A stretch of 64,000 nt of DNA, from positions 16,502 through 80,501 of IMG/VR virus record IMGVR_UViG_3300015371_000013; one strand, 5' to 3'. Position numbers and translations under genes: made by a program. A model generated the notes under the pieces. It had not been told where the DNA came from, did not search any database, and was given only the letters and a program-made list of their open reading frames with translations. Numbering within the stretch: the first letter of the stretch is position 1; each line of letters begins with the position of its first letter. The DNA comes from a virus. Shown piece by piece: positions 6,967-20,999 of this stretch.

Positions 6967-7031
6967 GGATTCCTCCTGGATAGGGTAGCTTTTCATTATA
7001 GGAGGGGTTTTTCCCGCGATCTCACCCGGAC

Positions 7032-7132
7032 AAAAAAGAAAGCCTGTGCGAGAATGAACTCTAAGGTTACTCACAGGTGTCTATCGCATTATTTCTCCAA
7101 AGCCTTGGATCGGCGGGCAATAGCACTCTTTC
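7032..7132 (-). ncRNA. putative cassette-borne structured sRNA (~100 nt)
   Basis: No RBS/ORF between motif 7131 and the U-tract at 7032. Stems GAAAG/CUUUC, GUGCUAUUGC/GCGAUAGACAC, UCCAA/UUGGA, CCUGUG/CACAGG. Confidence 0.65.
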
Positions 7133-7164
7133 ATTAAAGGCTATGTTTTTCACGCGAATTACAC

Positions 7165-7200
7165 AAAAAAGAGAACCTGCGTTTTAGACAGATTCTCCTT
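7165..7200 (-). terminator. intrinsic terminator
   Basis: GAGAATCTG...CAGGTTCTC plus T6. Confidence 0.7.
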
Positions 7201-7205
7201 TGAGA

Positions 7206-7487
7206 TTACTTCTCCTGCTTGTCGTTCTTCTTAGCTTGGCGATTGTTCCACTTCTCGGTGAGGAAGTCGGCGGTCTTGTCGACGGCGATATCGGTGAGAC
7301 TGCCGCAGGCGTTACTTACGCCCCAGCCAACGATACCCGCTCCGATCTTGACGATCATGGCGTCCTTCTCGAAATTGGTGTTGTTGGCTGTGGTGTTGGT
7401 AACAACTTCGGCCGTCTTGATAGCGACGATCGACCTAGCGACCCACTTCGCAATGTTGCGAGCGGTGAAATCAGTAGGATCCAGCAT
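7206..7487 (-). CDS. cassette-borne hypothetical protein (93 aa)
   Basis: MLDPTDF..., AGGAG RBS, downstream of motif 7517. Confidence 0.75.
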   Translation of the reverse strand: MLDPTDFTARNIAKWVARSIVAIKTAEVVTNTTANNTNFEKDAMIVKIGAGIVGWGVSNACGSLTDIAVDKTADFLTEKWNNRQAKKNDKQEK

Positions 7488-7624
7488 AGAATTACTCCTA
7501 GTTTGGGGTTTGGTTCTCATTATAGGCGATGAAATATACGCGAGCCACGCGCTAACCCGTCCCACTGCTCGCACTCTACTGGCGCCGCCACTGGAGATAA
7601 GCCGGTCTTTCGTAGAGCTAAAAC

Positions 7625-7852
7625 TTAGAACAACTCAAGCTGGTCATCTTGATCATCTTGATCTTCTCGAATATCCCGTTCGAGTTCTTCAGGAGTCTCA
7701 GGTTTAGGCTTCTGACTATCTCTGATAAACCTGAGATAAACCGCTGTGATTCGATCTCTCGGCCAATTGGCGACCTTTTCTTGCCAGGCCAGGCCGGGAT
7801 ACATCTTGGATACGTAATTTCGACGATCACGATCTTCTTTGTCTTGACTCAT
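7625..7852 (-). CDS. conserved small phage protein
   Basis: Y....W..KV..W....I.AVY motif with an acidic tail. Confidence 0.7.
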   Translation of the reverse strand: MSQDKEDRDRRNYVSKMYPGLAWQEKVANWPRDRITAVYLRFIRDSQKPKPETPEELERDIREDQDDQDDQLELF

Positions 7853-7855
7853 AAT

Positions 7856-7963
7856 CTATCGCCAGGACCATAGAATGGCAAAGAATATAAGGCACAGCCC
7901 CACCAGCATGATGGCCAGTACCTCACCTGGGCCCAGGCAGAGTCCAAGCCATTTGCAGAGCAT
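7856..7963 (-). CDS. small membrane peptide (35 aa)
   Basis: Manual ORF MLCKWLGLCLGPGEVLAIMLVGLCLIFFAILWSWR with AAAGGA RBS. Confidence 0.55.
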   Translation of the reverse strand: MLCKWLGLCLGPGEVLAIMLVGLCLIFFAILWSWR

Positions 7964-7994
7964 GGATTTGTCCTTTGAAATCGAGATTCTGAGC

Positions 7995-8265
7995 TGCCTC
8001 CATTGCCGTGCGGGATGAGCACCATGGCAATTGGCACTCCCTGCTGTTCTTCACAGCCAGGTCGCAGATCATCCCCTGCCCGTGGCGCCTACGTCTGGAG
8101 GGCGTACGGGTGGAGGAATGACCCCACTCAGAGTCTTTCTGAGTGGTCTTTTCCTAGAGGATATGGGGTACAAGGACGCAACTGCTTCTATCGCTGTTGT
8201 CTTTTATAGGCTAGCACTCTATGGGCTGCCGTCCTTGCCTTGCGCTTACCCCATCTCCCTAGGAG
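7995..8265 (-). ncRNA. putative structured non-coding RNA block
   Basis: No credible ORF; consecutive hairpins plus a long branched stem at 8152-8264. Confidence 0.55.
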
Positions 8266-8269
8266 AGCT

Positions 8270-8485
8270 TTAACCCACCACGCTGATCTGGCGGATCACG
8301 AACGCGTTCGAGGCACTTCCATGCGCGGAGAGTTCCAACCTATCTCCCCGAGGCGTGATCCTCAATCGGGCTTGTGGGTTACTTCTGCTCTCCACGAACA
8401 CTTCTCCGCTGGGATTCGTGTATACCACCACGTCCCGGCTTTCGAAGTGAATCGGAAACTGCTCGGTTCCGATGTGAGAGGCCAT
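8270..8485 (-). CDS. hypothetical protein (71 aa)
   Basis: ORF track; AGGAGG RBS. Confidence 0.7.
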   Translation of the reverse strand: MASHIGTEQFPIHFESRDVVVYTNPSGEVFVESRSNPQARLRITPRGDRLELSAHGSASNAFVIRQISVVG

Positions 8486-8563
8486 GCATCCTCCTACTGT
8501 GGTTTAAGCCACCACATGGGCTTGACTACCTTTTGAAGCCATAGTTTTAAATATGCAAGCCAC

Positions 8564-8799
8564 GGGTCCGAACTATCCTACCCTGCCTGCTCTCTACCGG
8601 CGCCTGACTATTGAACGAACGAAGCCAAGAATTCAATAGTCGGTATTTTGTAGAGCGTCTTACCTCTAGTTTGGGTTTTGGTTATGCGTCAAATATGACC
8701 GTGAGACCGTATAGTTTGCTGGCTCCCGGTGTTCGACGACGAATATGAGGTCAATCAAATCCGGTTACTTAGCCTATTATTTGGTCGTTGCACGGACCC
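8564..8799 (-). ncRNA. putative ~235-nt structured RNA
   Basis: Intergenic; ends pair (GGGTCCG/CGGACCC); perfect 10-bp stem 8606-8615/8632-8641. Confidence 0.45.
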
Positions 8800-8824
8800 C
8801 TTAACAGGTACCAGCTTTAAAGAT

Positions 8825-9460
8825 TTAGGCCAGCTTGAAACGACCGGCAGCTAGACCGGTCTGAAGATCGGATGAATCCATCTCTACGACTTCGGCCTGG
8901 GTGAGAGTGACCGGATTATTAGAAGTGGCTGAGGCAATCTTTTTATCTCGATCAGCCTTCGTCTCGGCTATAGATCTCTGAGCAACCGCCGGTCGGGGAC
9001 CCATAGGTGTCTGAGCTCCATCAGCTTGAGCCTTCTCTGCCTGGGCTCGAATATCACCGGCAATCTTCTCAAGGTTGCTGGGAACCACACCGTTCATGAA
9101 TTCGGCGGCAGCTCCGGCGTCCGTACACAGCTCGAAGAGCAGCTGGGAAAAGGCTTCGGTAGAGGCAAATTCTTCCCAGATGACCGATGACTTGCGGAAG
9201 CTGTCTCCGTCTTTTCTGCCATAGGCTCGACGAATAATATCCTTGATCTCGGTCATGATGGCTTTGCCATCTTCAGAATCGACGATACGCTGAAGCTTGG
9301 CCTGCATACCCGTAAGCGTCTCGCCATCTTTGACGTATTTCACGCCGTGTTCTTCCATCTCCATCTCGACCAGATCAGCCTTGGAAATATGAAAGTAGTG
9401 TTCCTCCGTCACCTCCTCTTCGGTGAACGGGTTCTCGTAGGTGATGGTCTTCTTGAGCAA
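8825..9460 (-). CDS. conserved phage protein (MLKKTITY family)
   Basis: 211 aa; YFHISKADLVEME and AYG.K motifs; GAAAGGAG RBS. Confidence 0.8.
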   Translation of the reverse strand: MLKKTITYENPFTEEEVTEEHYFHISKADLVEMEMEEHGVKYVKDGETLTGMQAKLQRIVDSEDGKAIMTEIKDIIRRAYGRKDGDSFRKSSVIWEEFASTEAFSQLLFELCTDAGAAAEFMNGVVPSNLEKIAGDIRAQAEKAQADGAQTPMGPRPAVAQRSIAETKADRDKKIASATSNNPVTLTQAEVVEMDSSDLQTGLAAGRFKLA

Positions 9461-9521
9461 CGCGCTCCTTTCAACAAGGGAGCCTCCGTGCTCTGGATAA
9501 TTGCGTCCTTTCGAAATATAA

Positions 9522-9592
9522 GGCCATAGCCGGTCGCTGGGATTGCGCCAACTTGTTACATAGCGGTAGCGAACCGTACCGGCATTATGGCC
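9522..9592 (-). ncRNA. putative branched RNA element
   Basis: GGCCATA/TATGGCC and GCCGGT/ACCGGC closing stems around two arms. Confidence 0.45.
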
Positions 9593-9598
9593 CAGGGG

Positions 9599-9691
9599 TT
9601 ACTTGTTCAGCAGCTTCGGCTTGCGCTCAAACCACCATGCGAGTCCGAAGGCACCGAGGGTGGTAGCGAGGATGATGAAAAACGGCTTCAT
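9599..9691 (-). CDS. small membrane peptide (30 aa)
   Basis: Manual ORF MKPFFIILATTLGAFGLAWWFERKPKLLNK; ATGA overlap. Confidence 0.55.
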   Translation of the reverse strand: MKPFFIILATTLGAFGLAWWFERKPKLLNK

Positions 9692-9831
9692 GGCATCGAC
9701 GGGGACGGCTCAGGGGTTGATGGCGATGACGAAGGCGGTGACGGCTTCTCAGGCGCGCTCTTGCCCAGAAAATCGTCGATGATGTCACTGAGCATGTAGC
9801 CAACGGCTACTCCGAGCAGGAACTTGGTCAT
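9688..9831 (-). CDS. small protein with Pro/Ser-rich tail (47 aa)
   Basis: Manual ORF MTKFLLGVAVGYML...; ATGA overlaps at both ends. Confidence 0.6.
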   Translation of the reverse strand: MTKFLLGVAVGYMLSDIIDDFLGKSAPEKPSPPSSSPSTPEPSPSMP

Positions 9832-10079
9832 CGATTTCCCCCATTGGGATCGACCGTTTGGGCGGCCTTGGCCGCTGCCGTCGCTGCCTCGGCCCGCAGG
9901 GTCTTGCTGCCAAAGCGGTTGAGCGTGAACAGGAGGCCTACTCCGACCACCAAGCCTCCCAGCGCGCTCTGCTTGAAGACCTTCTTGCCGTGCTCGGTGA
10001 TGATGAGACGCGCGATCTCGTCCTCTCCCAGCGGTGTGGTGAAACCCTCACCAGTCTTAAGGGTCTTGAAACCCAACAA
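9828..10079 (-). CDS. membrane protein (83 aa)
   Basis: TTG start with AAAGGAGAG RBS; one TM segment. Confidence 0.7.
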   Translation of the reverse strand: MLGFKTLKTGEGFTTPLGEDEIARLIITEHGKKVFKQSALGGLVVGVGLLFTLNRFGSKTLRAEAATAAAKAAQTVDPNGGNR

Positions 10080-10117
10080 TGTACTCTCCTTTGTTTTATA
10101 TGACGATGTTCAGACGG

Positions 10118-10375
10118 TCAGGACTTGACGCAACCGGCTCTGAAACGGAGCACGCCGACGACGAACATGCTCGCGCCCAGCCCCATGAAGGTGGTCCCCC
10201 ACGCCAGGTTTTCTTTGGCGAGCATCTCGGGCGTCTTGTTGATGGTGGTTCGGTTGATCACCGGGGGCTTGACGGCCGCCTTCTCGAGCAGCTCGTTGTA
10301 CCTCTCGACTGCGATCTTGACGGTACCGTCGCTTGCCGTCTTGATGGTCTGGACGTTCTCACTGGATTCGGCCAT
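10118..10375 (-). CDS. membrane protein (85 aa)
   Basis: MAESSEN..., AAGGAGAG RBS; C-terminal TM segment. Confidence 0.7.
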   Translation of the reverse strand: MAESSENVQTIKTASDGTVKIAVERYNELLEKAAVKPPVINRTTINKTPEMLAKENLAWGTTFMGLGASMFVVGVLRFRAGCVKS

Positions 10376-10411
10376 TGTACTCTCCTTGTTGTTATGAATA
10401 TAAATCAACGG

Positions 10412-10620
10412 AGCCCCCGATCCAGTACCGGGCCCTTAGGCAGACCGGCTACTGAACCGAGGGCTGTGATCCGTCGAGGCCGGTTCCCATCCGACCATCC
10501 CTCCTGAGGGATACTTGAAATATGTGGTCCGCGCTGAGGGAGAGGCATCAAAGTCCTTATGCCGACCACTCTCGATAGCCTCTTGCCTATTACCGTTGAT
10601 TAGATAATAGGTCTATCGAG
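10412..10620 (-). ncRNA. putative structured non-coding RNA block
   Basis: 16-bp G-U-containing stem at 10412-10465, followed by further branched hairpins up to 10620. Confidence 0.55.
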
Positions 10621-10633
10621 TACTACTTCAGAA

Positions 10634-10729
10634 CTACTTCTGCTTGGCCCACTTCTCCATCATCTGGAGCAAGGCGTCGGCCAGACGTTGCTTTCGATTC
10701 CTCTTACGACGAAGAAATGGGATGCGCAT
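10634..10729 (-). CDS. small basic peptide (31 aa)
   Basis: Manual ORF MRIPFLRRKRNRKQRLADALLQMMEKWAKQK with AAGGAG RBS. Confidence 0.6.
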   Translation of the reverse strand: MRIPFLRRKRNRKQRLADALLQMMEKWAKQK

Positions 10730-11040
10730 CTTGGGGTCTCCTTATTCTGGATCAAGAAAATATGACTGACTTAACGAGAGGGATGGATCGCCGTATTCAT
10801 TAGTGATCACAAACTGCGCTTCGTCGAATTTCTTTAAGATCCGATTTCGTTTCTGACTATTCCGCATTCGACGTCTATACAACGACGATCGTTTAGGATA
10901 GTCCTGTGTTACTTGATGATTCTCTGCTATTTCCATCGGCCGAGAAACTTCAGACCGACCCCTCCGATGATGCCACTGGCGATGAGCATAAATATGCTGA
11001 TACCAGGGCATCAACCGGAGCTCGGGTGCTTCAAGTCGAT

Positions 11041-11849
11041 CTAGTAGTGCTTTGGGATGTAGTCCGGCTTGGGGAGTACCTGGAAGTCGATTGACAGACA
11101 AGGTCTTCCGTCTGGAGATGTAACCGTATCGTACTTGAGCTCCAGAAGCTCATCGGTGTTCCACCCCATATCGTCGGTCCATGAGGTGGCGGGCATTCCG
11201 AGACGCTCGTAGAAGGCGGTAGCATTGACCCAACCTCGATCGTTGAGGATCTCGGCGTTGGTGTCGTTGACTGCCTTCTTGATCTTCTCCATGGTGCTAT
11301 GGAAATATCGTCCGGTCGGCTCATCAAAACAGAGAACCTCTCCCTCGACCACGACGATTTTCTGATAGCCGTCGGTTCGATTCACCCGATCCTGAGAAAT
11401 CTCCGCCTCGATGGATTGCTTCTTCGGACCGGTGAGCTTCTCGGAGACCTTCTCCTTGTACTCCGAGAGATTGCGTTCAGCCAGACCATAGGCCGCCGCC
11501 AAAGCTGCCGCTTTCTGAGCCGACATGCGATGGGAGAATATGATGGCACTGATCGTGAGACCTCCGGTGACGACAGGAGGCACGAACTGCGGCCAGACCA
11601 GCTTGATCTTCTGAGACGGGCTGAGTCCCATGGTGGCATTGCTTTCACCATCGATGACGTCGGTCACGCCTTCGGGATGAATATGCTCGAGCTCCTTCTC
11701 GCGGATGATCTCCGCGGCTTTAAAGCCAGCTCGGCCGGTGAGGACTGCGGTGGCAACTGTGCCAACAACACCTCCCGCGGTGAGCAGAACGGTCGCGTTC
11801 TCAGAAACGAACTGGGCGCCCTTCTGCTTTACTGCATCAAGAAACTGCA
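11041..11849 (-). CDS. DUF6353-like protein (paralogue of 4778-5740)
   Basis: VLLTAGGVVGTVATAVL, GRYF, N..FYE.LG, D.MGWN motifs. Likely GTG start at VQFLDA after an AGGAGA RBS. Confidence 0.8.
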
Positions 11850-11882
11850 CTCTCCTAGGCCTTTCTCGAACTTGGGTGGACG

Positions 11883-11920
11883 AAAAGAAAAAGAGATTCC
11901 GAATCAACGGATCTCTCTTC
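11883..11920 (-). terminator. hairpin/U-tract directly after motif 11919 (empty cassette)
   Basis: GAGATCCG-TTGATT-CGGAATCTC-TTTTTCTTTT begins right after TATAATGA. Confidence 0.7.
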
Positions 11921-11949
11921 ATTATAGGGGATGTTTTTCCCGCGAATTT

Positions 11950-12135
11950 TCAGCGGTCGTTCTTCCGATGGATTTCGAGCCTCTCGCCAGGCTTGAATCG
12001 GCATCGCCCTAATTTTCCCTCCAAGGTGGTAAGGCCTATCTCACTGGGGGTAACCCATCTCACAGACACCACGTCGGTGACTGCGAAAACGACCTCCTCG
12101 GTTTCCTCATCGACAAATATGAGTTCGAAGGTCAT
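11950..12135 (-). CDS. hypothetical protein (61 aa)
   Basis: ORF track restarted at MTFELIF; a 29-aa ATGA-coupled ORF (12132-12221) lies upstream. Confidence 0.65.
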   Translation of the reverse strand: MTFELIFVDEETEEVVFAVTDVVSVRWVTPSEIGLTTLEGKLGRCRFKPGERLEIHRKNDR

Positions 12136-12217
12136 CGAGACTTTCCGCGAAGAATGGCGGCGAGAGCCAGTAGTTTCTGAGCTTGGTCCTCGCATGACTG
12201 AGCAATCTGATCAGCGG

Positions 12218-12382
12218 TCATCGTCGCATCTCCCGGCAGAATATCCAGATGAGCCAGAGCCCCCCTGTGACAACTGTCAACATGACGTCGAACACAAAGG
12301 AAAAGAAGCCATAGCGCTTTCGCGGCTCTCCGAAGTAGACATGGCGAGAATATGTCTGATTGTCACGAAAGAACTCACGCAT
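12218..12382 (-). CDS. small membrane protein
   Basis: MREFFRDN...FDVMLTVVTGGLWLIWIFCREMR. Confidence 0.7.
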   Translation of the reverse strand: MREFFRDNQTYSRHVYFGEPRKRYGFFSFVFDVMLTVVTGGLWLIWIFCREMRR

Positions 12383-12677
12383 TGTCGTCACGCTCATTGT
12401 ACTTGTTCTGGATCTCAATCAGCTTGGCCGACATGCTGTCGAGAATAACTTGATCGAACTCGCTGAGCTCGATACGATTATCATCCACGATTTGCAAAAG
12501 CCGATTGCGCTGTCTGATCGTCTCTTCGAGAGCGGTAGCCAGATCCTCTCGATGTTCAATTACGATATCAATGCTTTTGAGCAGTCGCTTGACCTGAACT
12601 ATCGATACAATGTTGGTGGCGAAGAGACCAGCAATGATGGCGTAAAAGTAAATATCACTATTGAGAAATTTACGCAT
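12375..12677 (-). CDS. membrane-anchored coiled-coil protein
   Basis: 100 aa; N-terminal TM segment. Confidence 0.7.
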   Translation of the reverse strand: MRKFLNSDIYFYAIIAGLFATNIVSIVQVKRLLKSIDIVIEHREDLATALEETIRQRNRLLQIVDDNRIELSEFDQVILDSMSAKLIEIQNKYNERDDNA

Positions 12678-12828
12678 CCCGCTTTATCCCCTTGGCTGTG
12701 GGGTGAAACTTTAAAGCGCGCCTCTCGGCGAGTTCTCGGGTGACGGCCCGGACTTTGACGGTTCGAGTCATCCCGTTCTCATACTCCACGGTGACGTGAT
12801 ACAAGCGCTTCGACTTCTTGGTCTGCAC
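12670..12828 (-). CDS. small basic protein (52 aa)
   Basis: Manual ORF VQTKKSKRLYHVTVEYENG...; overlaps the next start. Confidence 0.6.
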   Translation of the reverse strand: MQTKKSKRLYHVTVEYENGMTRTVKVRAVTRELAERRALKFHPTAKGIKRDA

Positions 12829-12860
12829 GGCAGGCTCTTTCTGTTGAGGGTAAATATGAC

Positions 12861-13067
12861 TTACGGAAGAAGATCTCTCAGAGCAGCGTAAGCTTCTCGT
12901 TGATTTGGAGTGAGCGAGAACTCAGCATACTCATTTGCGAGTTCTTTGATTTCCTGACGTTCTTCGGGGGTGAACTGTTCACGCAAAGTGCTCGCCATGC
13001 GACGAGCATCGTTGTGAATCGTCATGATCACTGTGTAATGGATGAGAGCTTTGTCTCGTGACTTCAT
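12861..13067 (-). CDS. hypothetical protein (68 aa)
   Basis: MKSRDKAL..., GAAAGGA RBS. Confidence 0.7.
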   Translation of the reverse strand: MKSRDKALIHYTVIMTIHNDARRMASTLREQFTPEERQEIKELANEYAEFSLTPNQREAYAALRDLLP

Positions 13068-13083
13068 CAGATTCCTTTCTGAG

Positions 13084-13163
13084 AAAAAAGAGAGAGAAGG
13101 GAATCTATCCAATTCAATGGCGTATTCCTTTGCAAGCCAACAGTCAGTTGGCTCTTCTCTCTC
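13084..13163 (-). ncRNA. putative cassette-borne sRNA (three-way junction)
   Basis: After motif 13162: closing stem GAGAGAGAAG/CUUCUCUCUC plus U-tract; arms AGCCAAC/GUUGGCU and GGAAU/AUUCC. Confidence 0.7.
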
Positions 13164-13190
13164 ACTATACGGCGTGTTTTCCCCGCGTGA

Positions 13191-13571
13191 CTATGCGGTC
13201 ACTACATCCGGCTTCCTGGCCACCCAGGTCGAGCTGATGAGATAGAGCCCAGCCAGGGTCGACAAGAACAGACCCCAACCCGGCTGAACCAGATCGTTGA
13301 CTCCCGCCTCACTGAGATGGAACCAGACATAGGCCACTTGAGACAGGACTACGAGACCGACGAAGATCGAGACGATCCTCATGTAGAGACCGGAGACGGC
13401 GGACGCGATGACGAGTCCGATGCCTGTGAATATGGCGACCGCCACCTCGGTGAAGTTCATCGGCCCGGCGCTGATGACTCCGAGAAAGCTGATCCAGGGG
13501 CCAAGGGCACCAAAGATAAGCGCGATAGCGCCAATGGTGAGCGCGGTGGGACGGTTGAGCTTGGTAGTCAT
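13191..13571 (-). CDS. four-TM membrane protein (126 aa)
   Basis: MTTKLNRP..., ALGPW and PGWGLFL motifs, AAAGGAG RBS. Confidence 0.75.
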   Translation of the reverse strand: MTTKLNRPTALTIGAIALIFGALGPWISFLGVISAGPMNFTEVAVAIFTGIGLVIASAVSGLYMRIVSIFVGLVVLSQVAYVWFHLSEAGVNDLVQPGWGLFLSTLAGLYLISSTWVARKPDVVTA

Positions 13572-13596
13572 GATGACTCCTTTATGGATTGTGGAT

Positions 13597-13684
13597 AAAA
13601 AAGAGAGACCCATCTCCTCCTGCTGTCGTAGCATGGCTTCGTTGGCAGGTCGCGTAGCATAGCTTCGCTGTGGAGATAGGTCTC
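13597..13684 (-). ncRNA. putative structured sRNA with duplicated hairpin
   Basis: 13-bp closing stem GAGACCUAUCUCC/GGAGAUGGGUCUC plus U-tract; both arms carry CGAAGC(U/C)AUGCUACG. Confidence 0.7.
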
Positions 13685-13691
13685 AAAATAT

Positions 13692-13813
13692 AAAGAAACC
13701 CCAGCACATTGCTCTACCTGGGCGCAATGCACTAGATAGAGTTAGGTGGGCACTCGAGGTACTTTTTACACCGTAGCCTGAGCGCAATGCATCAGACTAA
13801 CTGCTGGGGTTTC
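13692..13813 (-). ncRNA. putative cassette-borne sRNA (~120 nt)
   Basis: After motif 13812: 12-bp closing stem GAAACCCCAGCA/UGCUGGGGUUUC; UGCAUUGCGC(U/C)CAGG occurs twice. Confidence 0.7.
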
Positions 13814-13830
13814 ATTATACCACGGGTTTT

Positions 13831-14238
13831 CTACGCGAATACGGAATTCGGCAAAGCCGCAAACCGTTCTTGTAACCCGTGAATATCCTGAGCAATCTCA
13901 CGAGCGTTTTTGCCAACAACGGCTGCAGCTCGATTGATGCTCGGATAAGGTTCGCCAGTCAGCTTGTCCAAAACAGGAATTGGCTCACGACAAGCTCTTT
14001 TTACGAGGGCTATCTGGGTGATCTTGGGCTTCCAGATAATCAACGCCGTATTCTTTGCTTTCTGCTGTATCTCAAGCGGCAAACCGTTGAGACGAAGTAG
14101 AATGGTGGTCGCAGTGACAGAAGAGCCCACCGCGAGACATCCTGCGCCGACGAGATACACCTTCTTGTTCTCCTGCAGATGCTGCTTAACCCGCTCGATC
14201 TTGGTACGATCGTCCTGCTTTTCTCCTTCCTGACTCAT
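13831..14238 (-). CDS. TM segment plus NUMOD1-like HTH protein (paralogue of 17824-18204)
   Basis: KQHLQENKKVYLVGAGCL shared with the paralogue; C-terminal TGEPYPSINRAA; the stop codon lies inside motif 13812. Confidence 0.75.
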   Translation of the reverse strand: MSQEGEKQDDRTKIERVKQHLQENKKVYLVGAGCLAVGSSVTATTILLRLNGLPLEIQQKAKNTALIIWKPKITQIALVKRACREPIPVLDKLTGEPYPSINRAAAVVGKNAREIAQDIHGLQERFAALPNSVFA

Positions 14239-14399
14239 AGTCCCTTCCTTGGGTTGAACACTGATTTACAAATATGAGCGATGGTGACAGCGGTGATGAT
14301 CTTTATCACTGCGTCCGTCGTCTTGTCAATCACTCGTTCCACGTCTTCGGTGGGGATGTTGATGTTGATGTTTACATCATCTTCGATCTTGTGCTTCAC
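14235..14399 (-). CDS. hypothetical protein (54 aa)
   Basis: Manual ORF VKHKIEDDVNININIP..., AAGGAG RBS, ATGA overlap. Confidence 0.65.
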   Translation of the reverse strand: MKHKIEDDVNININIPTEDVERVIDKTTDAVIKIITAVTIAHICKSVFNPRKGL

Positions 14400-14421
14400 G
14401 ACTCTCCTTGTCGCCCGAGGG

Positions 14422-14485
14422 AAAAAATGAAAGAGATCACAATTTCGAATATGCGATTACAGGAGCCTTTCTCCTTCTCTTTCAT
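14422..14485 (-). ncRNA. putative cassette-borne sRNA (three-way junction, ~60 nt)
   Basis: AAUGAAAGAG/CUCUUUCAUU closing stem plus U-tract; arms AGGAG/CUCCU and AUCGCA/UGUGAU. Confidence 0.6.
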
Positions 14486-14509
14486 TATAGGGGCGGTTTT
14501 TCACGCGAA

Positions 14510-14872
14510 TTATTCACCCTCAATATCTGCTTTGATATCCGGCAATTCCTTCGGGCGTTCTCGTCTTTCTGAGGTGACGATCACGGTTATGGTGGGCAAT
14601 TCCCACCGGCGTTCGGCCAGAGGATCGATCTGCATCTGGCGAAGATCCTCAGGCGTTAAAGAGAACTCGTATACTTCAGGCGTGATGACCTTGTCTCTGT
14701 CGGCCAGCACCGAGTTGAACTTCATCGCCTTGTAGGTAACCGCCGATCCAACCATGGCTCCAAATATCCCGGTGGCGGCGTAAGGATGATCGGTAGCGAA
14801 TCTGATCGAACGAGACAGCAGAAGCAACCAGTTTATCTGGTTCATCTGCTCTTTCATCTGATCTTGCTCCAT
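14510..14872 (-). CDS. hypothetical membrane protein
   Basis: 120 aa; AGGAGG RBS. Confidence 0.75.
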   Translation of the reverse strand: MEQDQMKEQMNQINWLLLLSRSIRFATDHPYAATGIFGAMVGSAVTYKAMKFNSVLADRDKVITPEVYEFSLTPEDLRQMQIDPLAERRWELPTITVIVTSERRERPKELPDIKADIEGE

Positions 14873-15493
14873 CTAGCCAACCTCCTTGCTGGCCTGTATC
14901 GAAGCGCTTACACCAATGATTCTGCAGAGAAGATTGATCGAATCGTGAGAATGCAGCGGCTCGTAATGCGGATTGAGCTTGTCTTGCTTTACCAGATCAA
15001 CGATGCCCTGAATATCCGTACGCCATTGAGAAGACGTATAGTAATCGGCCAGCCCGCGATCCGTACGCTTAAGCGTGTCAAGGAACTTATCCTCGGCAAT
15101 CTCCTTAATACGATTTGCCCATTCCGAGGTAATTTCCATAGTCGCCCCTGTGCCCTTCTGAACGAAGGGCGAATTGTCGACGTACTGCATAGCGTCGTTG
15201 TAGATTCGAGCAACCACGATCTCCTTGAGGGCATCCTGACCATAGATCAGGACAGCATAACCCAAGGGCAGATTCCAGATCTTCTCCGGACGACCATGAT
15301 GAACGCCCTGAGTGAGGCAGTTGTAGCCCCACTCGATTTCCTTCTGAGACTTCTGAGGACCCTTTACCTTGATGAACTTCACCATATTCTCAGCCTCGTA
15401 TTCCGAGACATCAAGTTCTTTGGCGATTTCACTGATAGAACGGTCTTCGCCTATCATCTGACGAGTTCGAGCTAGTTTCTCTTGGGTGTTCAT
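14873..15493 (-). CDS. N-terminal HTH protein (206 aa)
   Basis: RSISEIAKELDVSE helix-turn-helix pattern. Confidence 0.7.
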   Translation of the reverse strand: MNTQEKLARTRQMIGEDRSISEIAKELDVSEYEAENMVKFIKVKGPQKSQKEIEWGYNCLTQGVHHGRPEKIWNLPLGYAVLIYGQDALKEIVVARIYNDAMQYVDNSPFVQKGTGATMEITSEWANRIKEIAEDKFLDTLKRTDRGLADYYTSSQWRTDIQGIVDLVKQDKLNPHYEPLHSHDSINLLCRIIGVSASIQASKEVG

Positions 15494-15598
15494 TACTCTC
15501 CTCTATACGCTTGATCTTTTGCTCCCAGAATGTCCAGTCCCGCCACCGCTGTTCTAGCAAATATAGCCGTTCTGGAGTCAACCACGGAGCAATCAACT

Positions 15599-15841
15599 TC
15601 ATTGATCTCCAAGTCCGGTATCGCGCAGAATTTTTCGCGAGATTTCCTTCGGATCAGTCAACCCTTGCCATTCTGTTCCTTCGCGGATGGCAAACAGGAC
15701 GTCAATCACGGCCAGATTGTATCCGACAAACTTAGCCTGATCCTCCGGAGAAATCTCTAGGTCGCCAGGCACAGGCTCAGCAATCTGCATGAAAGTATCT
15801 TGAAGCTCTTTGAGTCGAGCTTTTTCGGTTTCGGTGATCAT
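15599..15841 (-). CDS. hypothetical protein
   Basis: 80 aa; AGGAGAG RBS. Confidence 0.7.
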   Translation of the reverse strand: MITETEKARLKELQDTFMQIAEPVPGDLEISPEDQAKFVGYNLAVIDVLFAIREGTEWQGLTDPKEISRKILRDTGLGDQ

Positions 15842-15861
15842 TGCTCTCCTAAATATAGTGA

Positions 15862-16068
15862 TTAATCGTCGATAACCAGAGGGTCAAACCATCGACCATC
15901 TAGATCATGACGAAACCCTGCCTCAAGCATACGTTGTTCGATAATCTCCGGATGCTCGGCCTCCATGTGCCGCACCTCTTCGTGCGTATTGTTGGCAACT
16001 GCTCCACAATATGGGCAATGCCTCACACAATAAGGTCCGGAGCTCATGGGGTAATCCTCGTCATACAC
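15862..16068 (-). CDS. C2H2-type Zn-finger-like small protein
   Basis: CPYC...HMEAEH. Confidence 0.65.
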   Translation of the reverse strand: MYDEDYPMSSGPYCVRHCPYCGAVANNTHEEVRHMEAEHPEIIEQRMLEAGFRHDLDGRWFDPLVIDD

Positions 16069-16520
16069 AGACTGATTCCACTCTGGGTACTCATGTAGCG
16101 CGCATCAGGCCAGATTCCCTTGCGATGAAGATCCAGCCGGTCGGCGTCCCAACAGGTGGCGATAGTGGGATTGATCGCTCTTTGACCAGAGCTATGCTCC
16201 ACACAGGCCTCGAACAGTAGTTCTATTTGCTCATCGAAAATATAGCGATGGAGATGCTCTTGCGTCTTGTAGAAGCGTTCCCACAATCGATACCCTCGAT
16301 TTCCATGATCAGGATCTTTACCATCGTTTACCCGCATGGAGTCGTGAAATAAAGCGTACAACGCCACAACTTCCATGTCGGCGCCGGTTTCATACCCGTT
16401 TAGCATCTGAGCGTTCTGCCAGACCCTAAACCAATGGTCAAGACCATGGAGTCGACTCTGGAGAACGTTCAGGGTTATAGACTCGCCCAAGACAAAGGGA
16501 ACGCAATGACTGGCGAGCAT
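16044..16520 (-). CDS. HD-domain phosphohydrolase
   Basis: HGLDHWFRV, LFHDSMR, DHG and CWDADRLDL motifs. Confidence 0.85.
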   Translation of the reverse strand: MLASHCVPFVLGESITLNVLQSRLHGLDHWFRVWQNAQMLNGYETGADMEVVALYALFHDSMRVNDGKDPDHGNRGYRLWERFYKTQEHLHRYIFDEQIELLFEACVEHSSGQRAINPTIATCWDADRLDLHRKGIWPDARYMSTQSGISLCMTRITP

Positions 16521-16546
16521 GGTTACTCCTGCGGGTTGGCCGTTGA

Positions 16547-16819
16547 TTATAAACTTTCCTTTGCTTTCTTGCGCTTTCGTCTCTTGTAGGCACGATCCAC
16601 GGTTCGTCTAGCGCAGATATCGCTACAGTACTGTGCATCGTTTCGAGGCTTTCTTGTTTTCGAGAGAGGCTCTTGGAATAGAAATTCCTTTTGACAGGTT
16701 TCGTCAGCACATCGCTTGATCTCGACATCAAGTAAAGTCAAGATCGCATCTGTGAGAGTGCTGGTTTGAGTATAGGAAAGGGCAGTCTGAACTACTACGT
16801 CGGGTACATCTTGGTTCAT
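16547..16819 (-). CDS. C4 Zn-finger (CGNR-like) protein
   Basis: CADETC...YCSDICARR with a basic tail; start MNQDVP. Confidence 0.65.
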   Translation of the reverse strand: MNQDVPDVVVQTALSYTQTSTLTDAILTLLDVEIKRCADETCQKEFLFQEPLSKTRKPRNDAQYCSDICARRTVDRAYKRRKRKKAKESL

Positions 16820-17028
16820 CACGACTGCAAATATGCGATGTCGCGAGCCTGCTTGAGATCGCGAGCCTGCTCGATGGTCAGACCAAGAAGCTCGGTCTTG
16901 GTGAAGCTCAGCTCGTCGCTGAACCACGGGAAGACAAACTTCTCAGAGCCGTCTTCCATAGTGGCGATGGCCTCCTTGTCACCGTAGCGGTGATTGGAGT
17001 CTTGAAAGATTACTGACTTGATGCGCAT
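16819..17028 (-). CDS. hypothetical protein (69 aa)
   Basis: F.WFSDELSF...EL.GLT..QA..L; AGGAGAG RBS. Confidence 0.75.
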   Translation of the reverse strand: MRIKSVIFQDSNHRYGDKEAIATMEDGSEKFVFPWFSDELSFTKTELLGLTIEQARDLKQARDIAYLQS

Positions 17029-17035
17029 AACTCTC

Positions 17036-17371
17036 CTAGTTTGGGTTGCCGAACAGTTCTTCCAGACGTGTAGCCAGATACTCCTGTCGAACTTCGTGAT
17101 GAACGTCTTTCAACTCTTCAAGAATATCGTGAGCAATCTGCTGATACTCCTGGCTGCTCGTAGTCTCGACGGGGAACCAGCGGTTAAGCTTCGGGTAAGG
17201 CCCTTCGCTTCTAAGGGCGTTTTCCCGCTTGAGTCGTCCGAGCATGGTGGTGATCTGGAGTGGCGGGCCCTCGAAAGAAATCCCAGCAATGATCTCAGAT
17301 CGAGCGGCTCCAGGATTGGCACGGACATATTCTATGATTTGATGTGTAAGAGTGTTGTTGGTTTGTGACAC
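17036..17371 (-). CDS. winged-helix-like DNA-binding protein
   Basis: IIEYVRANPGAARSEI...LGRLKRENAL. Confidence 0.65.
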   Translation of the reverse strand: MSQTNNTLTHQIIEYVRANPGAARSEIIAGISFEGPPLQITTMLGRLKRENALRSEGPYPKLNRWFPVETTSSQEYQQIAHDILEELKDVHHEVRQEYLATRLEELFGNPN

Positions 17372-17436
17372 AAAGTCTCTCAGGTTGTGGGGTCTCAGAA
17401 AAAATGAGAACCCACGAATGGATTCTCATTGAAATA

Positions 17437-17643
17437 CTACGACTTGTTGAGCTTGGCGGTCTCGAGGTTGAGCTTGGCGGTCTCGAGCTGCATCTGGTTC
17501 ACCTTGAGGCCTGCGTACACGGACGCGCCGGTCAGAGCCACGGGAATGACGATCCACGCGGTCATGATGGCGGCATCCTTGATGCGCTGCTTCTTGGTGG
17601 GCTTGGGCGGCTCGACGACCTTGGGGGTCTCGGGCTCGGACAT
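17437..17643 (-). CDS. cassette-borne membrane protein (68 aa)
   Basis: MSEPETPK..., AAAAGGAG RBS, TM segment, C-terminal LETAKLN x2. Confidence 0.75.
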   Translation of the reverse strand: MSEPETPKVVEPPKPTKKQRIKDAAIMTAWIVIPVALTGASVYAGLKVNQMQLETAKLNLETAKLNKS

Positions 17644-17692
17644 GCAACACTCCTTTTGTAGTGGTTTCATTATGAACTGTGAAATATCCGCG

Positions 17693-17797
17693 AAAGAAAA
17701 GAGAGAGCCACCTACCAACGACTTATAGAAGTTGGGATCCGACCCCCTTAAAGGGGATCTCGTCAAGGCGACTTAGAGAAGCCTAGATGACTCTCTC
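17693..17797 (-). ncRNA. putative cassette-borne sRNA (four-way junction)
   Basis: 14-bp closing stem GAGAGAGUCAUCUA/UAGGUGGCUCUCUC (2 G-U) plus U-tract; three arms, two with CUUCU(C/A)UAAGUCG; bracketed by motifs 17796 and 17667. Confidence 0.75.
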
Positions 17798-17823
17798 ACT
17801 ATAAAGCGTGAATATGGCGCGAA

Positions 17824-18204
17824 TTATATGGTGATACGTTCGAAGTGCAACCCATTCGCATGCGGGTATTTACCGTTCAGATGCTGTGAAAGGTTAGTTT
17901 CCGAGATGCCCTTCGCCAAAGCGGCCTCTGCTTGGCTGCTCCACTTCTCCAGAGTTTCGAGACATCGTACTGGATTAGCCGGGTAATTGCGCTGGTTCAA
18001 ATACTTGATGACCACGTCGACATTCTTTGACTTATTGACTATCAGACCAATGTTGTCAGTACCATTGAACGTCTGAATTACATTGGGGCTTGACACCCCG
18101 CGCAGCAAATATCCCGCGGTAAGACATCCTGCACCAACCAAGTAAACCTTCTTGTTGTCCTTCAAATGCTGCTTGATCTTCTGATAACGCGTAGACTCTT
18201 CCAT
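17824..18204 (-). CDS. TM segment plus NUMOD1-like HTH protein
   Basis: PVRCLETLEKWSSQAEAALAKGIS..NLSQHLNG...GLHFER resembles NUMOD1/IENR1. Confidence 0.75.
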   Translation of the reverse strand: MEESTRYQKIKQHLKDNKKVYLVGAGCLTAGYLLRGVSSPNVIQTFNGTDNIGLIVNKSKNVDVVIKYLNQRNYPANPVRCLETLEKWSSQAEAALAKGISETNLSQHLNGKYPHANGLHFERITI

Positions 18205-18259
18205 GATTTCCTTTAGTTCGTTTGAATAAAAAAGGAAAGCCCCTTTTCGGGGCTCGCCT

Positions 18260-18421
18260 TTAGGCGTAGATCTGAACGACGCCGGGGACGAGGGTGGTCT
18301 CAGCCAGCTTGGCCTGGGACTTGGTGATCATTCGCTCGTACTTGTACACCGCACGGATAGTGCGGAGAACGTTGACGTTTGCGTTGATCTCGGTCTTAAC
18401 GGCCTTGATGGGATGGAACAT
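18260..18421 (-). CDS. cassette-borne small protein (53 aa)
   Basis: Manual ORF MFHPIKAVKTEIN..., AAAGGAG RBS. Confidence 0.7.
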   Translation of the reverse strand: MFHPIKAVKTEINANVNVLRTIRAVYKYERMITKSQAKLAETTLVPGVVQIYA

Positions 18422-18508
18422 AATGGTCTCCTTTGGTGGTTTAGGTCTTCATTATGTACCATGTTTTTCACGCGAAAAAGGAAAGCCCGTGCGGACTCTC
18501 CTTAGAAA

Positions 18509-18706
18509 TTACTTCACCTGGTTGGAAGCTGCCTTGAGGGTTTCGAGGACGATCCTCTTGTCGAGCATCTTGTACGAGATGAATGAGTTGGCGACTGCGG
18601 TAGCACAGTAGATGGAAAAGCATCCGAGTACTAGCTTTTGGCTGCCAGTCATCATCATGATACGAGACCTCCTAAGAGGCTCACGGGTTTCGTTTGACTC
18701 GGGCAT
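18509..18706 (-). CDS. cassette-borne membrane protein (65 aa)
   Basis: AGGAGAG RBS; lies between motif and terminator. Confidence 0.7.
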   Translation of the reverse strand: MPESNETREPLRRSRIMMMTGSQKLVLGCFSIYCATAVANSFISYKMLDKRIVLETLKAASNQVK

Positions 18707-18794
18707 AACTCTCCTAGAGTTGATAGTGGTTTCATTATAGCCTGTGAAAAGTATGCGAAAAACTGAAAGCCCGGGTTAGGGGCTCTCAGTTTGA

Positions 18795-18932
18795 TTAGCT
18801 GCTCTTCTTCGAAAGCAGATGATCGGCGATGACGATTGAACTCGTTGCCAGCGTAAGCCACGCACTGGCCCGAGTGGCCCGATGGGCGTGGGGGGCGGTG
18901 ACGTGGATGACGGCGGCGAGCTTGTTCTTCAT
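18795..18932 (-). CDS. cassette-borne small protein (45 aa)
   Basis: Manual ORF MKNKLAAVIH..., GAAGGAG RBS. Confidence 0.7.
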   Translation of the reverse strand: MKNKLAAVIHVTAPHAHRATRASAWLTLATSSIVIADHLLSKKSS

Positions 18933-19030
18933 GGCAAATCTCCTTCTGATAAGAGGGTTTACTTTTCATTAGAAGCTATGAAATATCCGCGAAAAACCTA
19001 GAGACCGGGTTAGGGTCTCAGGGTTTTGAA

Positions 19031-19222
19031 CTAGAACTTACGGGCGATGATGACTTGGGAGTTCGGCTCGAGTGCGGCCAGAGCATCGACATGTTCCTGG
19101 ATGCGGCGCTGACGCTCCTGCTCTTCCCCAGCTGCAGCGAATGCAGTGAGGGTGAACAGAGCGGCGCCACCCAGGGCCTTGCCGGTGTTGCGGGCGTACT
19201 TCTTGGCGGTTTCCTTGGTCAT
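19031..19222 (-). CDS. cassette-borne membrane protein (63 aa)
   Basis: AAAAGGAG RBS; hydrophobic segment. Confidence 0.75.
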   Translation of the reverse strand: MTKETAKKYARNTGKALGGAALFTLTAFAAAGEEQERQRRIQEHVDALAALEPNSQVIIARKF

Positions 19223-19322
19223 GGTTTTTCTCCTTTTGAGTTTGATTTAGTTCTCATTATAAGACATGAAAATTACGCGAAAAAAGAAAGAAAGAGAATC
19301 CGATGCGGACTCCCTTCTTGAT

Positions 19323-19454
19323 TTAGACCTGCGAGGTGTACTGGTGACCAACGTCTTGTAGACTGGCGTACACGTCCATTGCAAATATGCTTCCCATCGC
19401 GAGGATGGTGAGCAGGATTACAACGAACATGAGGCGTCCGAGGGACAGGGTCAT
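19323..19454 (-). CDS. cassette-borne membrane peptide (43 aa)
   Basis: Manual ORF MTLSLGRLMFVVILLTILAMGSIFAM..., AAGGAG RBS. Confidence 0.7.
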   Translation of the reverse strand: MTLSLGRLMFVVILLTILAMGSIFAMDVYASLQDVGHQYTSQV

Positions 19455-19542
19455 GAGGTATCTCCTTGTTTAGGTTTGGTTTCATTATACTCCATGAAAT
19501 ATGCGCGAAAAAGGAAAGCCCGTGCGGACTCTCCTGTTGAGG

Positions 19543-19761
19543 TTACTTCTTGGGGTTAATGTTCTCGACAGCGCGCCTGGCGGAAGTGAGAGCGATCTGC
19601 TCCTCGAGGTACATGATGCGGGCATTGACCTTGTTGGTGTGGCTCTCGCTAGCGGCAGGGCTAGCGGAAAGCTGCCAACGAGTCATTTCGGCATTCAGGT
19701 ACTCGAGGATGGCATCAAGCTTCTCAACTTCTGTAATAGGCTTACGGGTCTTGAAAAACAT
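19543..19761 (-). CDS. cassette-borne helical protein (72 aa)
   Basis: AAGGAG RBS; lies between motif and terminator. Confidence 0.75.
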   Translation of the reverse strand: MFFKTRKPITEVEKLDAILEYLNAEMTRWQLSASPAASESHTNKVNARIMYLEEQIALTSARRAVENINPKK

Positions 19762-19842
19762 GTTGACTCCTTGATAGTGGTTTCACTATAATCCATGAAA
19801 TATGCGCGAAAAAGGAAAGCCTGGGTAGGCTCTCCTGTGAAA

Positions 19843-20019
19843 CTAATTGTTCTGCTGGGAAACGTCGGCTTCGAACTTGCGCTTATTTCGGCGGTCCAGA
19901 TAGTTGACGAATCCGATACCCACGACGATCAGAGTAGCGTTGAGGGCAACGTACTGAACGGGGTGACTACGAATCCAGTCGTACTGGACCTCCTGAGACT
20001 TGCGGTAAAGCTTGAACAT
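19843..20019 (-). CDS. cassette-borne membrane protein (58 aa)
   Basis: MFKLYRKS..., one TM segment. Confidence 0.7.
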   Translation of the reverse strand: MFKLYRKSQEVQYDWIRSHPVQYVALNATLIVVGIGFVNYLDRRNKRKFEADVSQQNN

Positions 20020-20113
20020 TGGAGTTCTCCAGTGTAGAGGTTTGGTTTCATTATAACCCATGAAATATGCGCGTAAAAAAAGAGAAGCCGGGTTAGGACT
20101 CCTCTCTAACGAT

Positions 20114-20347
20114 CTAATCGATGGGAATCAGGTCGTAGTGAAATCGCGGAAAGCCGATACGTCTCATCTGGAAACGATAACGACCGGGCGGCACGGTGCG
20201 GAAATCTCCGTCCTGACACATGTTCATGAAAGTTCCGTGAAGAATCTTTTCTTTTTGTGTCGGGTCAGAGGTGACATAGGCAACGTGGGCCACATCGTCG
20301 TCGTTTATAGTGACGAGAATATAGGGTTTTGACGATTTTCGAAACAT
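20114..20347 (-). CDS. cassette-borne hypothetical protein (77 aa)
   Basis: GAAAGGA RBS. Confidence 0.75.
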   Translation of the reverse strand: MFRKSSKPYILVTINDDDVAHVAYVTSDPTQKEKILHGTFMNMCQDGDFRTVPPGRYRFQMRRIGFPRFHYDLIPID

Positions 20348-20434
20348 GATGTTCCTTTCGGGTAGGTGTCATTATAAGCTGTGAAATGTTCGCGAAAAAA
20401 GAAAGTCCCGGATTGAGACTCTCTTTTTGACTAC

Positions 20435-20683
20435 TTACACGACAGGACTCGCTTCGTTGAGGACGAAGATGTTGAGGCGATCAGAAGTCCACTTGAGAGC
20501 ATCTCCTGGATTGTCCAGCAGCTTCTGGAGATTCTCAGGGCTGACCGAGAGGAACAGATCGCTGGTGTTGTTGGACATCAGGCGATGTGCTCCTACGGCT
20601 CCTGCAATAACTCCAGCACCGTAGACGATGACAGTGTGATGCTTCCGATAGAACTTCTTAGCACGTTGGTACTTGTCGTTCAC
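20435..20683 (-). CDS. cassette-borne membrane protein (82 aa)
   Basis: GTG start VNDKYQ after AAAGGAG. Confidence 0.7.
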   Translation of the reverse strand: MNDKYQRAKKFYRKHHTVIVYGAGVIAGAVGAHRLMSNNTSDLFLSVSPENLQKLLDNPGDALKWTSDRLNIFVLNEASPVV

Positions 20684-20777
20684 GAAATACTCCTTTGAGT
20701 AGTAGGTTGTCACTATACCCCATGAAATATGTGCGAAGACAAAAAGAGAAGCCGCGTTAGGGCTCCTCTCTTTGAGA

Positions 20778-20999
20778 CTACTTCACCATGTAGATGGCGT
20801 AGCCGTGTCCAACGACTTTGACACTCATCTCGAACAGGTCATCGTGGTCAATGATCCTGTGGTTTGTGGTATCGGTGGGGCCATCGATCTCGAAGACGAA
20901 CCAGGTATGTTCTTCTTCAATCTCGGGACGGACGCCACCGTTCAGAACCTGGATCAAATCCAGAGTGTTCTGTTCGATGGGAATGGCGTATGTGGACAC
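20778..20999 (-). CDS. cassette-borne hypothetical protein (73 aa)
   Basis: GTG start VSTYAIP after AAAGGAGG. Confidence 0.7.
   Translation of the reverse strand: MSTYAIPIEQNTLDLIQVLNGGVRPEIEEEHTWFVFEIDGPTDTTNHRIIDHDDLFEMSVKVVGHGYAIYMVK

Follow-up and report, generated by a model that had tools for sequence, protein, structure and literature searches.

A clamp-closed twin-hairpin RNA element of a rhizosphere siphophage and its relatives in a lineage-wide family of cassette RNAs

Several described systems offer points of comparison for the RNA reported here. An intrinsic terminator is a GC-rich stem with a simple loop of 3–8 nt, followed directly by a U-tract, and stands at the end of a short transcription unit, before a gene. 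The CsrB/RsmZ sponges are compact RNAs that finish in a terminator and display one small hairpin several times over. The boxB hairpins of the lambda/P22 N-nut system and the put hairpins of HK022 are small, sequence-specific and promoter-proximal, lie upstream of terminators and differ in specificity among related phages. In T4 rnaC/rnaD and the T5 stable RNAs the 5' and 3' ends pair in a closing stem around a variable cargo, in expression units like those of tRNAs, while the Racr RNA anti-CRISPRs and ToxI are non-coding RNAs of phages in which a unit is repeated and a terminator stands ahead of the next gene. Here we describe W2, an 80-nt RNA domain on the minus strand (13605..13684) that resembles each of these in part. 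It lies in an 80.5-kb siphophage genome, an IMG/VR record from rhizosphere metagenomes, whose capsid-protease fusion is about 55% identical to the versions in Streptomyces, Arthrobacter and Gordonia phages. Unless another locus is named, positions refer to the window, the 64,000-nt stretch formed by bases 16502-80501 of that genome.

W2 is a clamp-closed twin-hairpin domain. Its ends pair in a 13-bp closing stem, the clamp, formed by the 5' arm GAGACCUAUCUCC (13672..13684) and the 3' arm GGAGAUGGGUCUC (13605..13617), with one U.G pair and seven G-C pairs, and the U-tract UCUUUUUU (13597..13604) follows directly, so that clamp and tract together are shaped like an intrinsic terminator. Within the 54-nt interior are two arms, arm 1 at 13668-13652 and arm 2 at 13649-13619. 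Each arm ends in a 15-nt tip in which a 3-bp AGC/GCU stem and a triloop are bordered by an A.A mismatch and two C-G pairs: CG-A-AGC-UAU-GCU-A-CG in copy 1 (13653..13667) and CG-A-AGC-CAU-GCU-A-CG in copy 2 (13627..13641), which are identical at 14 of 15 positions. The lower stems are dissimilar, arm 2 having a further, unrelated 5-bp stem, CCUGC/GCAGG, beyond a 3x3 internal loop. The original prediction, made by a model from the sequence alone, had proposed this closing stem and U-tract, the duplicated tip with its YAU triloop and mismatch, and unlike supporting stems. Its coordinates proved exact on the minus strand (13684->13605, tail 13604-13597), and refolding reproduced every one of these features.

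The minimum free energy (MFE) of the domain is -40.3 kcal/mol, with z between -5.8 and -6.6 (about -6) against 200 dinucleotide shuffles, and the MFE structure accounts for about 80% of the ensemble. When the 54-nt interior was put through 5000 dinucleotide shuffles, a 15-nt repeat with at most one mismatch came up in only 2 of them. W2 is confirmed as a real, tightly folded non-coding RNA element. It belongs to no known RNA family: Rfam 15 gave no match in the whole window at the gathering threshold, and none in 12900-18000 at E <= 10. The tip motif has no further copy on either strand of the 80.5-kb genome with up to two mismatches. A genome-wide scan for hairpins of the type A/stem/YAU/stem/A returned four matches where about three are expected, so there is no enrichment beyond W2, and two matches in the relative G001 fall within a repeated coding motif. 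A hairpin in the window, CGA-GGG-UAU-CCU-ACG at 39863-39877 (minus) in a 326-aa open reading frame (ORF), has the flanks and loop of the W2 tip on a covarying stem. It is absent from the local MFE fold and is probably a chance match.

RNAs of similar build recur across the phage lineage, as what we call cassettes: a clamp that begins 0–2 nt past the TATAAT of a TTCGCG-N14-TATAAT promoter, one to four inner hairpins, and a 3' arm followed by a U-tract, all free of ORFs. In at least 15 cassette RNAs, two or three near-identical tips of 13–28 nt sit on dissimilar lower stems. W2 shares this trait, together with a purine-rich 5' arm (GAGA..) that pairs with the 3' arm and with the U6 that comes next. 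It also shares the position in an array of RNAs, behind a homologue of the 135-aa protein p135 and an RNA of CAUUG type, and this order is identical in the present phage (G0), the related loci L062 and L092, Gordonia phage Conley (L100) and Rhodococcus phage ReqiPepy6 (L101). The first RNA of an array is usually of the CAUUG(C/G)G type, as is W1, the neighbour of W2 in our phage, and the next has tips of the W2 design. The two-site design that the original prediction saw in W2 and at 17797->17701 is likewise that of W1 (13813->13695). That prediction missed the cassette system that spans the lineage and is tied to a phage-specific promoter, and the clamp as a terminator before a gene. The clamp sequence GAGACCYA...UGGGUCUC is common to W2, to L062-Y (3516->3440) and to the RNA at G002 36509-36580 (also to G002 A and B), and the two-arm layout occurs in L062-Y and G002 36508 as well. 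Unlike W2, both of these have the TTCGCG-N14-TATAAT promoter 0–2 nt ahead of the clamp.

The tips themselves have relatives. In the W2 design, two or more base pairs lead to a 3–4-bp stem that has an unpaired A on either side of its base and ends in a UAU-type triloop; this design is found twice in our phage, twice in L062-Y (with A.G), in the third RNA of L092 and in the third RNA of ReqiPepy6, with an AUA variant in L097. Contrary to the original prediction, the motif is not unrelated in design to other elements; the A.A mismatch, short covarying stem and UAU-type triloop recur in the homologous RNAs of other phages. Stems of this type covary (AGC/GCU, GCC/GGC, GCU/AGC, CCGU/GCGG and CCUU/GAGG, and in the AUA variant GCGC/GCGC and GUGC/GCAC) while the unpaired A's and the loop type are kept from phage to phage. 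This is the pattern expected of a structure-specific recognition site. A base-pairing seed would show the reverse, for here the conserved features are structural and the stem sequence drifts.

The same observations bear on a trans-acting role, in which the two elements would be the seeds of a base-pairing small RNA (sRNA) directed at host or phage mRNAs; the original prediction had spoken of a target in this sense. Like many sRNAs, W2 is compact and its 3' end resembles a terminator, and some known sRNAs contain repeated motifs. However, each tip is a closed hairpin exposing three single-stranded nucleotides in a fold that dominates the ensemble, short of an accessible seed of at least 6–7 nt. 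The phage genome contains no complementary or identical site elsewhere with up to two mismatches, and across homologues it is structure, not stem sequence, that is conserved. The case for a target of the classical kind is weak, and we consider a base-pairing sRNA very unlikely.

We favour, tentatively and with a little less than even confidence, the reading that W2 serves a protein as a bivalent docking or decoy RNA and, in this phage, doubles as a terminator or attenuator. What speaks for it is that cassettes occur as stand-alone units, that their ends are clamped together as is typical of stable RNAs, that they carry two or three closed hairpins that are identical, and that mismatch and loop are conserved on covarying stems. 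W2 would be the second domain of a non-coding transcript of about 215 nt that starts at the promoter at 13839-13814 and continues, past W1 and its leaky U/A tract, to include W2. The clamp would pair the 5' and 3' ends, giving both stability and a hairpin-plus-U-tract terminator, and in RNAs of this kind would present small hairpins in two or three identical copies. In W2 the two A.A/YAU-triloop tips would then most likely form a bivalent docking site for a dimer or for two copies of a protein, and the docked RNA might act as a decoy, a sponge or a platform. The twin hairpins of the thrS operator are bound by a dimer, and a bivalent layout would likewise suit a dimeric binder here. The clamp would also attenuate transcription into the downstream gene, a 126-aa membrane-protein gene without a promoter of its own. 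We infer termination at the clamp and U-tract from their form; protein binding by the tips, and whatever might follow from it, is the most conjectural part of the scheme. In contrast to CsrB/RsmZ, where multiple GGA-containing hairpin loops bind CsrA/RsmE, the loops of W2 are UAU and CAU with no GGA loop among them, the motif being instead an A.A mismatch, a 3–4-bp stem and a UAU-type triloop, and cassette RNAs have two or three copies only, are phage-encoded and are tied to a phage-specific promoter.

The prediction that W2 has no promoter of its own held. Only TATATT-tt stands ahead of the stem, the TTCGCG box is absent, and a sigma-70 scan was empty there. At the same spot in L062, the W2 homologue L062-Y has TTCGCG-N14-TATAAT directly at its clamp. 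Comparison with L062 indicates that the junction UUUAUAUUUU (13685..13694, minus) consists of the interrupted U-tract of W1 and a TATATT remnant of a lost cassette promoter; it looks like the outcome of a deletion of about 20 nt that removed the W2 promoter. Upstream lie W1 (13695..13813, minus), a cassette RNA whose 12-bp clamp encloses three arms and which has the twin motif UGCAUUGCGCYCAGG, and, abutting it, the phage-type promoter TTCGCG-N14-TATAAT (13814..13839, minus). Lacking a promoter, W2 could be obtained only from transcripts of this W1 promoter that pass the interrupted U-tract of W1. W2 is therefore most likely made by read-through from W1, and the leaky, U/A-rich linker between the two agrees with the read-through junction that the original prediction had thought plausible. 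The predicted products are W1 alone (about 125 nt), W1-W2 (about 215 nt) and rare read-through into the 126-aa gene.

That gene (13191..13571, minus) starts at ATG 13571, behind a strong ribosome-binding site (RBS), AAAGGAG (13577..13583, minus), which lies 13 nt past the U-tract of W2. On the mapped signals it is reachable only via W2 read-through. It would be an alternative account of the whole region if W2 were instead coding, as the N-terminal extension of this gene in a 147-aa ORF. The frame is indeed open from an AUG at 13634, and the gene caller gave a 140-aa version. The AUG at 13634, however, has no RBS ahead of it and is buried in the loop of tip 2. All 12 aligned homologues of the 126-aa protein (55-90% identical) begin M..LNRPTAL, which corresponds to ATG 13571, and in the closest relative, L052 (90%), a TGA interrupts the frame 45 nt upstream of the gene start. 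Translation through W2, which had been named as the finding that would overturn the predicted RNA, has next to no chance of being correct, and the 147-aa extension is, on this evidence, an open-frame artefact. The 126-aa product is a multi-helix membrane protein with no Pfam or PHROG match and no ToxN-like domain. With repeats of 15 nt that are not in tandem and such a downstream gene, W2 is unlike a type III toxin-antitoxin system, in which direct tandem repeats of about 34–36 nt and a terminator precede an endoribonuclease toxin gene. Unlike Racr and ToxI, with their 28–37-nt CRISPR repeats or 34–36-nt tandem repeats, the cassette RNAs carry 13–20-nt tips on unrelated lower stems.

The position of W2 in front of this gene raises the possibility that it acts purely in cis, as an elaborate terminator or attenuator in the leader of the 126-aa gene, with the twin hairpins serving as antiterminator sites like nut or boxB for regulated read-through. 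The 13-bp GC-rich stem, the U6 directly after it, the 13 nt to the RBS and the lack of a promoter between them fit such a role. Other members also lie between a promoter and a promoterless gene: 13163->13090 and the unit at 14484 in the window, G001 5364 and 7621, and G002 35537. In L093 the tips are CCC-GAUAA-GGG, present three times, which we take to resemble the pentaloop boxB hairpins of lambda and P22. Against this, ordinary genes of the phage have simple hairpin terminators, so a branched interior is not needed for termination, and the tips lie inside the terminator loop, where they do not compete with the clamp. L062-Y, Conley RNA2 and the third ReqiPepy6 RNA precede a separate promoter for the next gene and so are not leaders. 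We identified no boxA and no N-like protein, though no systematic search for an N-like protein was made. W2 also differs from nut and put in having triloops in place of a pentaloop, which in a lambda-type boxB is GNRA-like, and in the many members of its class that are not leaders. Its loop is unlike that of an ordinary intrinsic terminator as well, being a two-armed interior with a duplicated tip, and its homologues are stand-alone units with their own promoter and another after them; a scan with a terminator consensus omitted W2, yet listed the phage's ordinary terminators. A purely cis-acting W2 seems to us unlikely, though worth keeping in view.

Self-contained cassettes are found both in the window and in cultured phages. 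A second promoter, for the next gene, follows 17797->17701, L062-X and L062-Y, and the Conley and ReqiPepy6 cassettes, which makes these self-contained units. In ReqiPepy6 a tRNA lies inside a promoter-clamp-U-tract cassette (L101:5173-5300), its clamp GAAAGGAAAG/CUUUCCUUC prolonging the acceptor stem. GenBank labels it tRNA-OTHER, ARAGORN assigns it to Ala with anticodon AGC, and Rfam matches it as tRNA. The format thus serves to express functional small RNAs. T4 rnaC/rnaD and the T5 stable RNAs differ from the cassettes in lineage, promoter and clamp sequence, and the hallmark here is a cargo of two or three identical tips. The arrays of Conley (after gene 54) and ReqiPepy6 (gp065-gp066) are unannotated gaps in GenBank, and across 129 kb of related loci the ReqiPepy6 tRNA was the sole Rfam match at the gathering threshold. 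The cassette RNAs are apparently an undescribed class of phage RNAs, unannotated also in cultured Gordonia and Rhodococcus phages.

Repeated tips are widespread in this class. L093 has ACCCGCUUACGGGA twice and CACCCGAUAAGGGAGA three times, and L092 has GUCAGUCAUUGCGAC twice and CACCGUUAUGCGGAGA three times. L096 has two RNAs with three copies each and L097 two RNAs with two copies each. Tips of 20 nt occur twice in G001 7621 and twice in G002 36508, Conley has a 23-nt and an 18-nt tip, each present twice, and in ReqiPepy6 one tip is present three times and another twice. A different cargo, with the core ..GUAGGUGAAAnUCCUACC.., was seen in Conley (L100:4524-4680), ReqiPepy6 (L101:5296-5450) and Arthrobacter phage Gordon (L103:5597-5700); it has no Rfam match and is unannotated.

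A further possibility is that the repeats work at the level of DNA, as iteron- or operator-like double-stranded sites for a phage DNA-binding protein, of which p135 is a candidate, in tethering, at an origin or as a roadblock. Each copy is nearly palindromic (CGnAGC-N3-GCTnCG), the copies are 26 bp apart, and relatives have two or three copies at similar spacing. The gene conserved upstream encodes a membrane-anchored protein with a NUMOD/I-HmuI-like DNA-binding domain, and the CAUUG(C/G)G core is kept in the first array RNA of our phage, Conley, L092, L096 and ReqiPepy6. Folding energies show no clear preference for the sense strand. DNA sites, however, have no need of distinct complementary lower stems, of a 12–17-bp clamp running from promoter to U-tract, of G.U pairs (75 of the 939 predicted pairs) or of compensatory changes that preserve a 3–4-bp hairpin. 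Moreover, the conserved A.A mismatch disrupts the palindrome at the same place in both copies. A role in double-stranded DNA strikes us as improbable.

The p135 gene (13831..14238, minus) lies upstream of the RNA array and encodes a transmembrane (TM) helix and a NUMOD-like C-terminal domain. Across its family the TM helix is N-terminal, and the C-terminal part has a conserved motif, PIPVLDKLTGExYxSIxRAA..TG....I..D..G (NUMOD/I-HmuI-like); the I-HmuI NUMOD-like model matches the C-terminal domain in distant members only. A fold search with a model of p135 gave weak matches, the best with E = 0.06, to small DNA-binding domains including I-HmuI and I-TevI, and homologues in cultured phages are annotated variously as membrane protein, HNH endonuclease and HTH protein. 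The RNA array comes immediately after a p135 homologue in our phage, G002, L062, L092-L097, Conley and ReqiPepy6. Judged from these arrangements, the link between p135 and the RNAs is one of position only.

The promoter of the cassettes may belong to an unusual polymerase. A 959-aa ORF in the part of the same genome outside the window (L061:561-3440, minus) matches phrog_4291 ('RNA-dependent RNA polymerase') with E = 0. Its product is a homologue of two-barrel single-chain RNA polymerases and is common to about 250 cultured phages of Arthrobacter, Gordonia, Streptomyces, Rhodococcus, Lactococcus and other hosts. The polymerase has been recognised as a YonO/crAss-like signature of this lineage, in a preprint with no word on promoters or RNAs (10.1101/842583). 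TTCGCG-N14-TATAAT, then GA(G/A)A(C/A)C, occurs in about 18 copies in the genome, all oriented with the genes and in the early or non-structural region (6995-21570 on the minus strand of the window, plus L061:9015-9040). The motif is present many times in the relatives G001, G002, L062 and L092-L097, and a variant with TCGCA for TCGCG in Conley, ReqiPepy6, Streptomyces phage Rima and Arthrobacter phage Gordon, while no copy was seen in Lactococcus phage P1046. Most copies have a Shine-Dalgarno sequence and a start codon 12–21 nt past TATAAT, and only a subset runs into cassette RNAs. A spacing of 14 nt does not suit a sigma-70 -35 element. From this co-occurrence, the promoter is probably read by the phage's YonO-like RNA polymerase. 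The clamp of a cassette always begins at the first bases past the hexamer, which argues for a start there, as at a T7 promoter, rather than 7 nt downstream, and the G after TATAAT is most likely the transcription start. To our knowledge, no promoter, start-site or termination signals have been reported for YonO-like polymerases. Literature searches on the promoter motif, on ReqiPepy6 and on Arthrobacter-phage transcriptomics turned up no description of either these RNAs or the promoter.

Several points weigh against a docking or decoy role for W2. No partner protein was identified for the tips, and the sole conserved neighbour, p135, looks DNA-binding, not RNA-binding. We infer both the start site and the polymerase that reads the promoter, and if a sigma-70-type enzyme used TATAAT as a -10 element it would start about 7 nt inside the clamp. 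The sense strand is the more stable in only 18 of the 29 cassette RNAs when sense and antisense folding energies are compared, and these energies do not discriminate an RNA from symmetry at the DNA level. The sequencing runs that contain the sequence are DNA only, with no RNA run among them. Close relatives also add little for W2 itself: the L052 contig ends 55 nt upstream of the gene, and the rhizosphere metagenome DNA contigs are identical over 13133-13949, so no covariation could be obtained from them.

A broader proposal, possible but doubtful, is that the lineage holds a dedicated system in which a phage-polymerase promoter, a clamp and a terminator together produce 'display RNAs', multivalent decoys or platforms for host or phage proteins. 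It would cover uncultured soil phages and at least the Gordonia and Rhodococcus phages examined. If so, W2 would be a new protein-recognition hairpin, made of an A.A mismatch, a short stem and a UAU triloop, and the arrays would form an RNA-based layer of host takeover or counter-defence that is absent from annotation. Gordonia and Rhodococcus phages, and probably many others among the roughly 250 members of the lineage, would then hold unannotated, architecturally regular small-RNA genes, and gene calls that extend ORFs into these RNAs would need correction. The proposal would also provide a defined promoter for an unusual single-chain RNA polymerase, a direct route to the signals by which YonO-like enzymes recognise promoters, start and terminate, and natural multivalent hairpin RNAs whose partners could be retrieved in tractable hosts such as Gordonia and Arthrobacter. 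Were W2 merely a terminator, the promoter-terminator cassettes would still follow a peculiar grammar.

Four further cassettes lie on the minus strand of the window, as do almost all its genes and W2. The RNA at 17797->17701 (unit 17701-17823) has the promoter TTCGCG-N14-TATAGT, a 14-bp clamp, three arms and the twin motif CUUCUMUAAGUCG. The other three, all without long repeats, comprise a 74-nt RNA at 13163->13090 (unit 13090-13169), a 55-nt RNA at 14425-14509 (promoter end 14484) and a 33-nt simple hairpin at 11885-11946 (promoter end 11921). Each of these three precedes a gene that has no other promoter, and the 74-nt unit is nearly identical in L052, the 90% relative. The W1 homologue L062-X (3700->3540) shares the core CUACGGUGUAAA...CACCUAAC...GAGCAAUGU with W1. 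Its twin motif, UCGGAGUAUACAA, is entirely unlike that of W1 despite the common core, and the twin core of W1, GCAUUGCGC, is also present in the second RNA of Conley. Loop-loop kissing by palindromic loops was considered; it fits some RNAs of the W1 type, not W2. Mimicry of an anticodon arm by the CAU and UAU loops was dropped, these loops having 3 nt and not 7.

Searches for wider relatives were made by several routes. The exact twin-motif pattern had no matches in IMG/VR, megablast with the region found no counterpart in cultured phages, and locus searches with single flanking proteins gave no relatives. A profile of the 126-aa protein found nothing in viral contigs and, in metagenome contigs, only two truncated loci, one of them L052. 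A pattern scan for the W1 core returned 29 loci, among which L062 was the only true relative, the rest being coding coincidences. The window contains neither tRNA nor tmRNA genes.

Two other repeats were seen in the genome. A 99-nt element outside the window (L061:6231-6329, minus) has a 14-bp closing stem and iteron-like repeats TTGCCAAAATTGCCAAGATTTTGCCAAGATTG, and could be an origin or a protein-binding array. Direct repeats with a 60-nt period at 53230-53443 lie in a 2208-aa ORF with Laminin_G_3 domains, whose product is likely a tail fibre or host-recognition protein.

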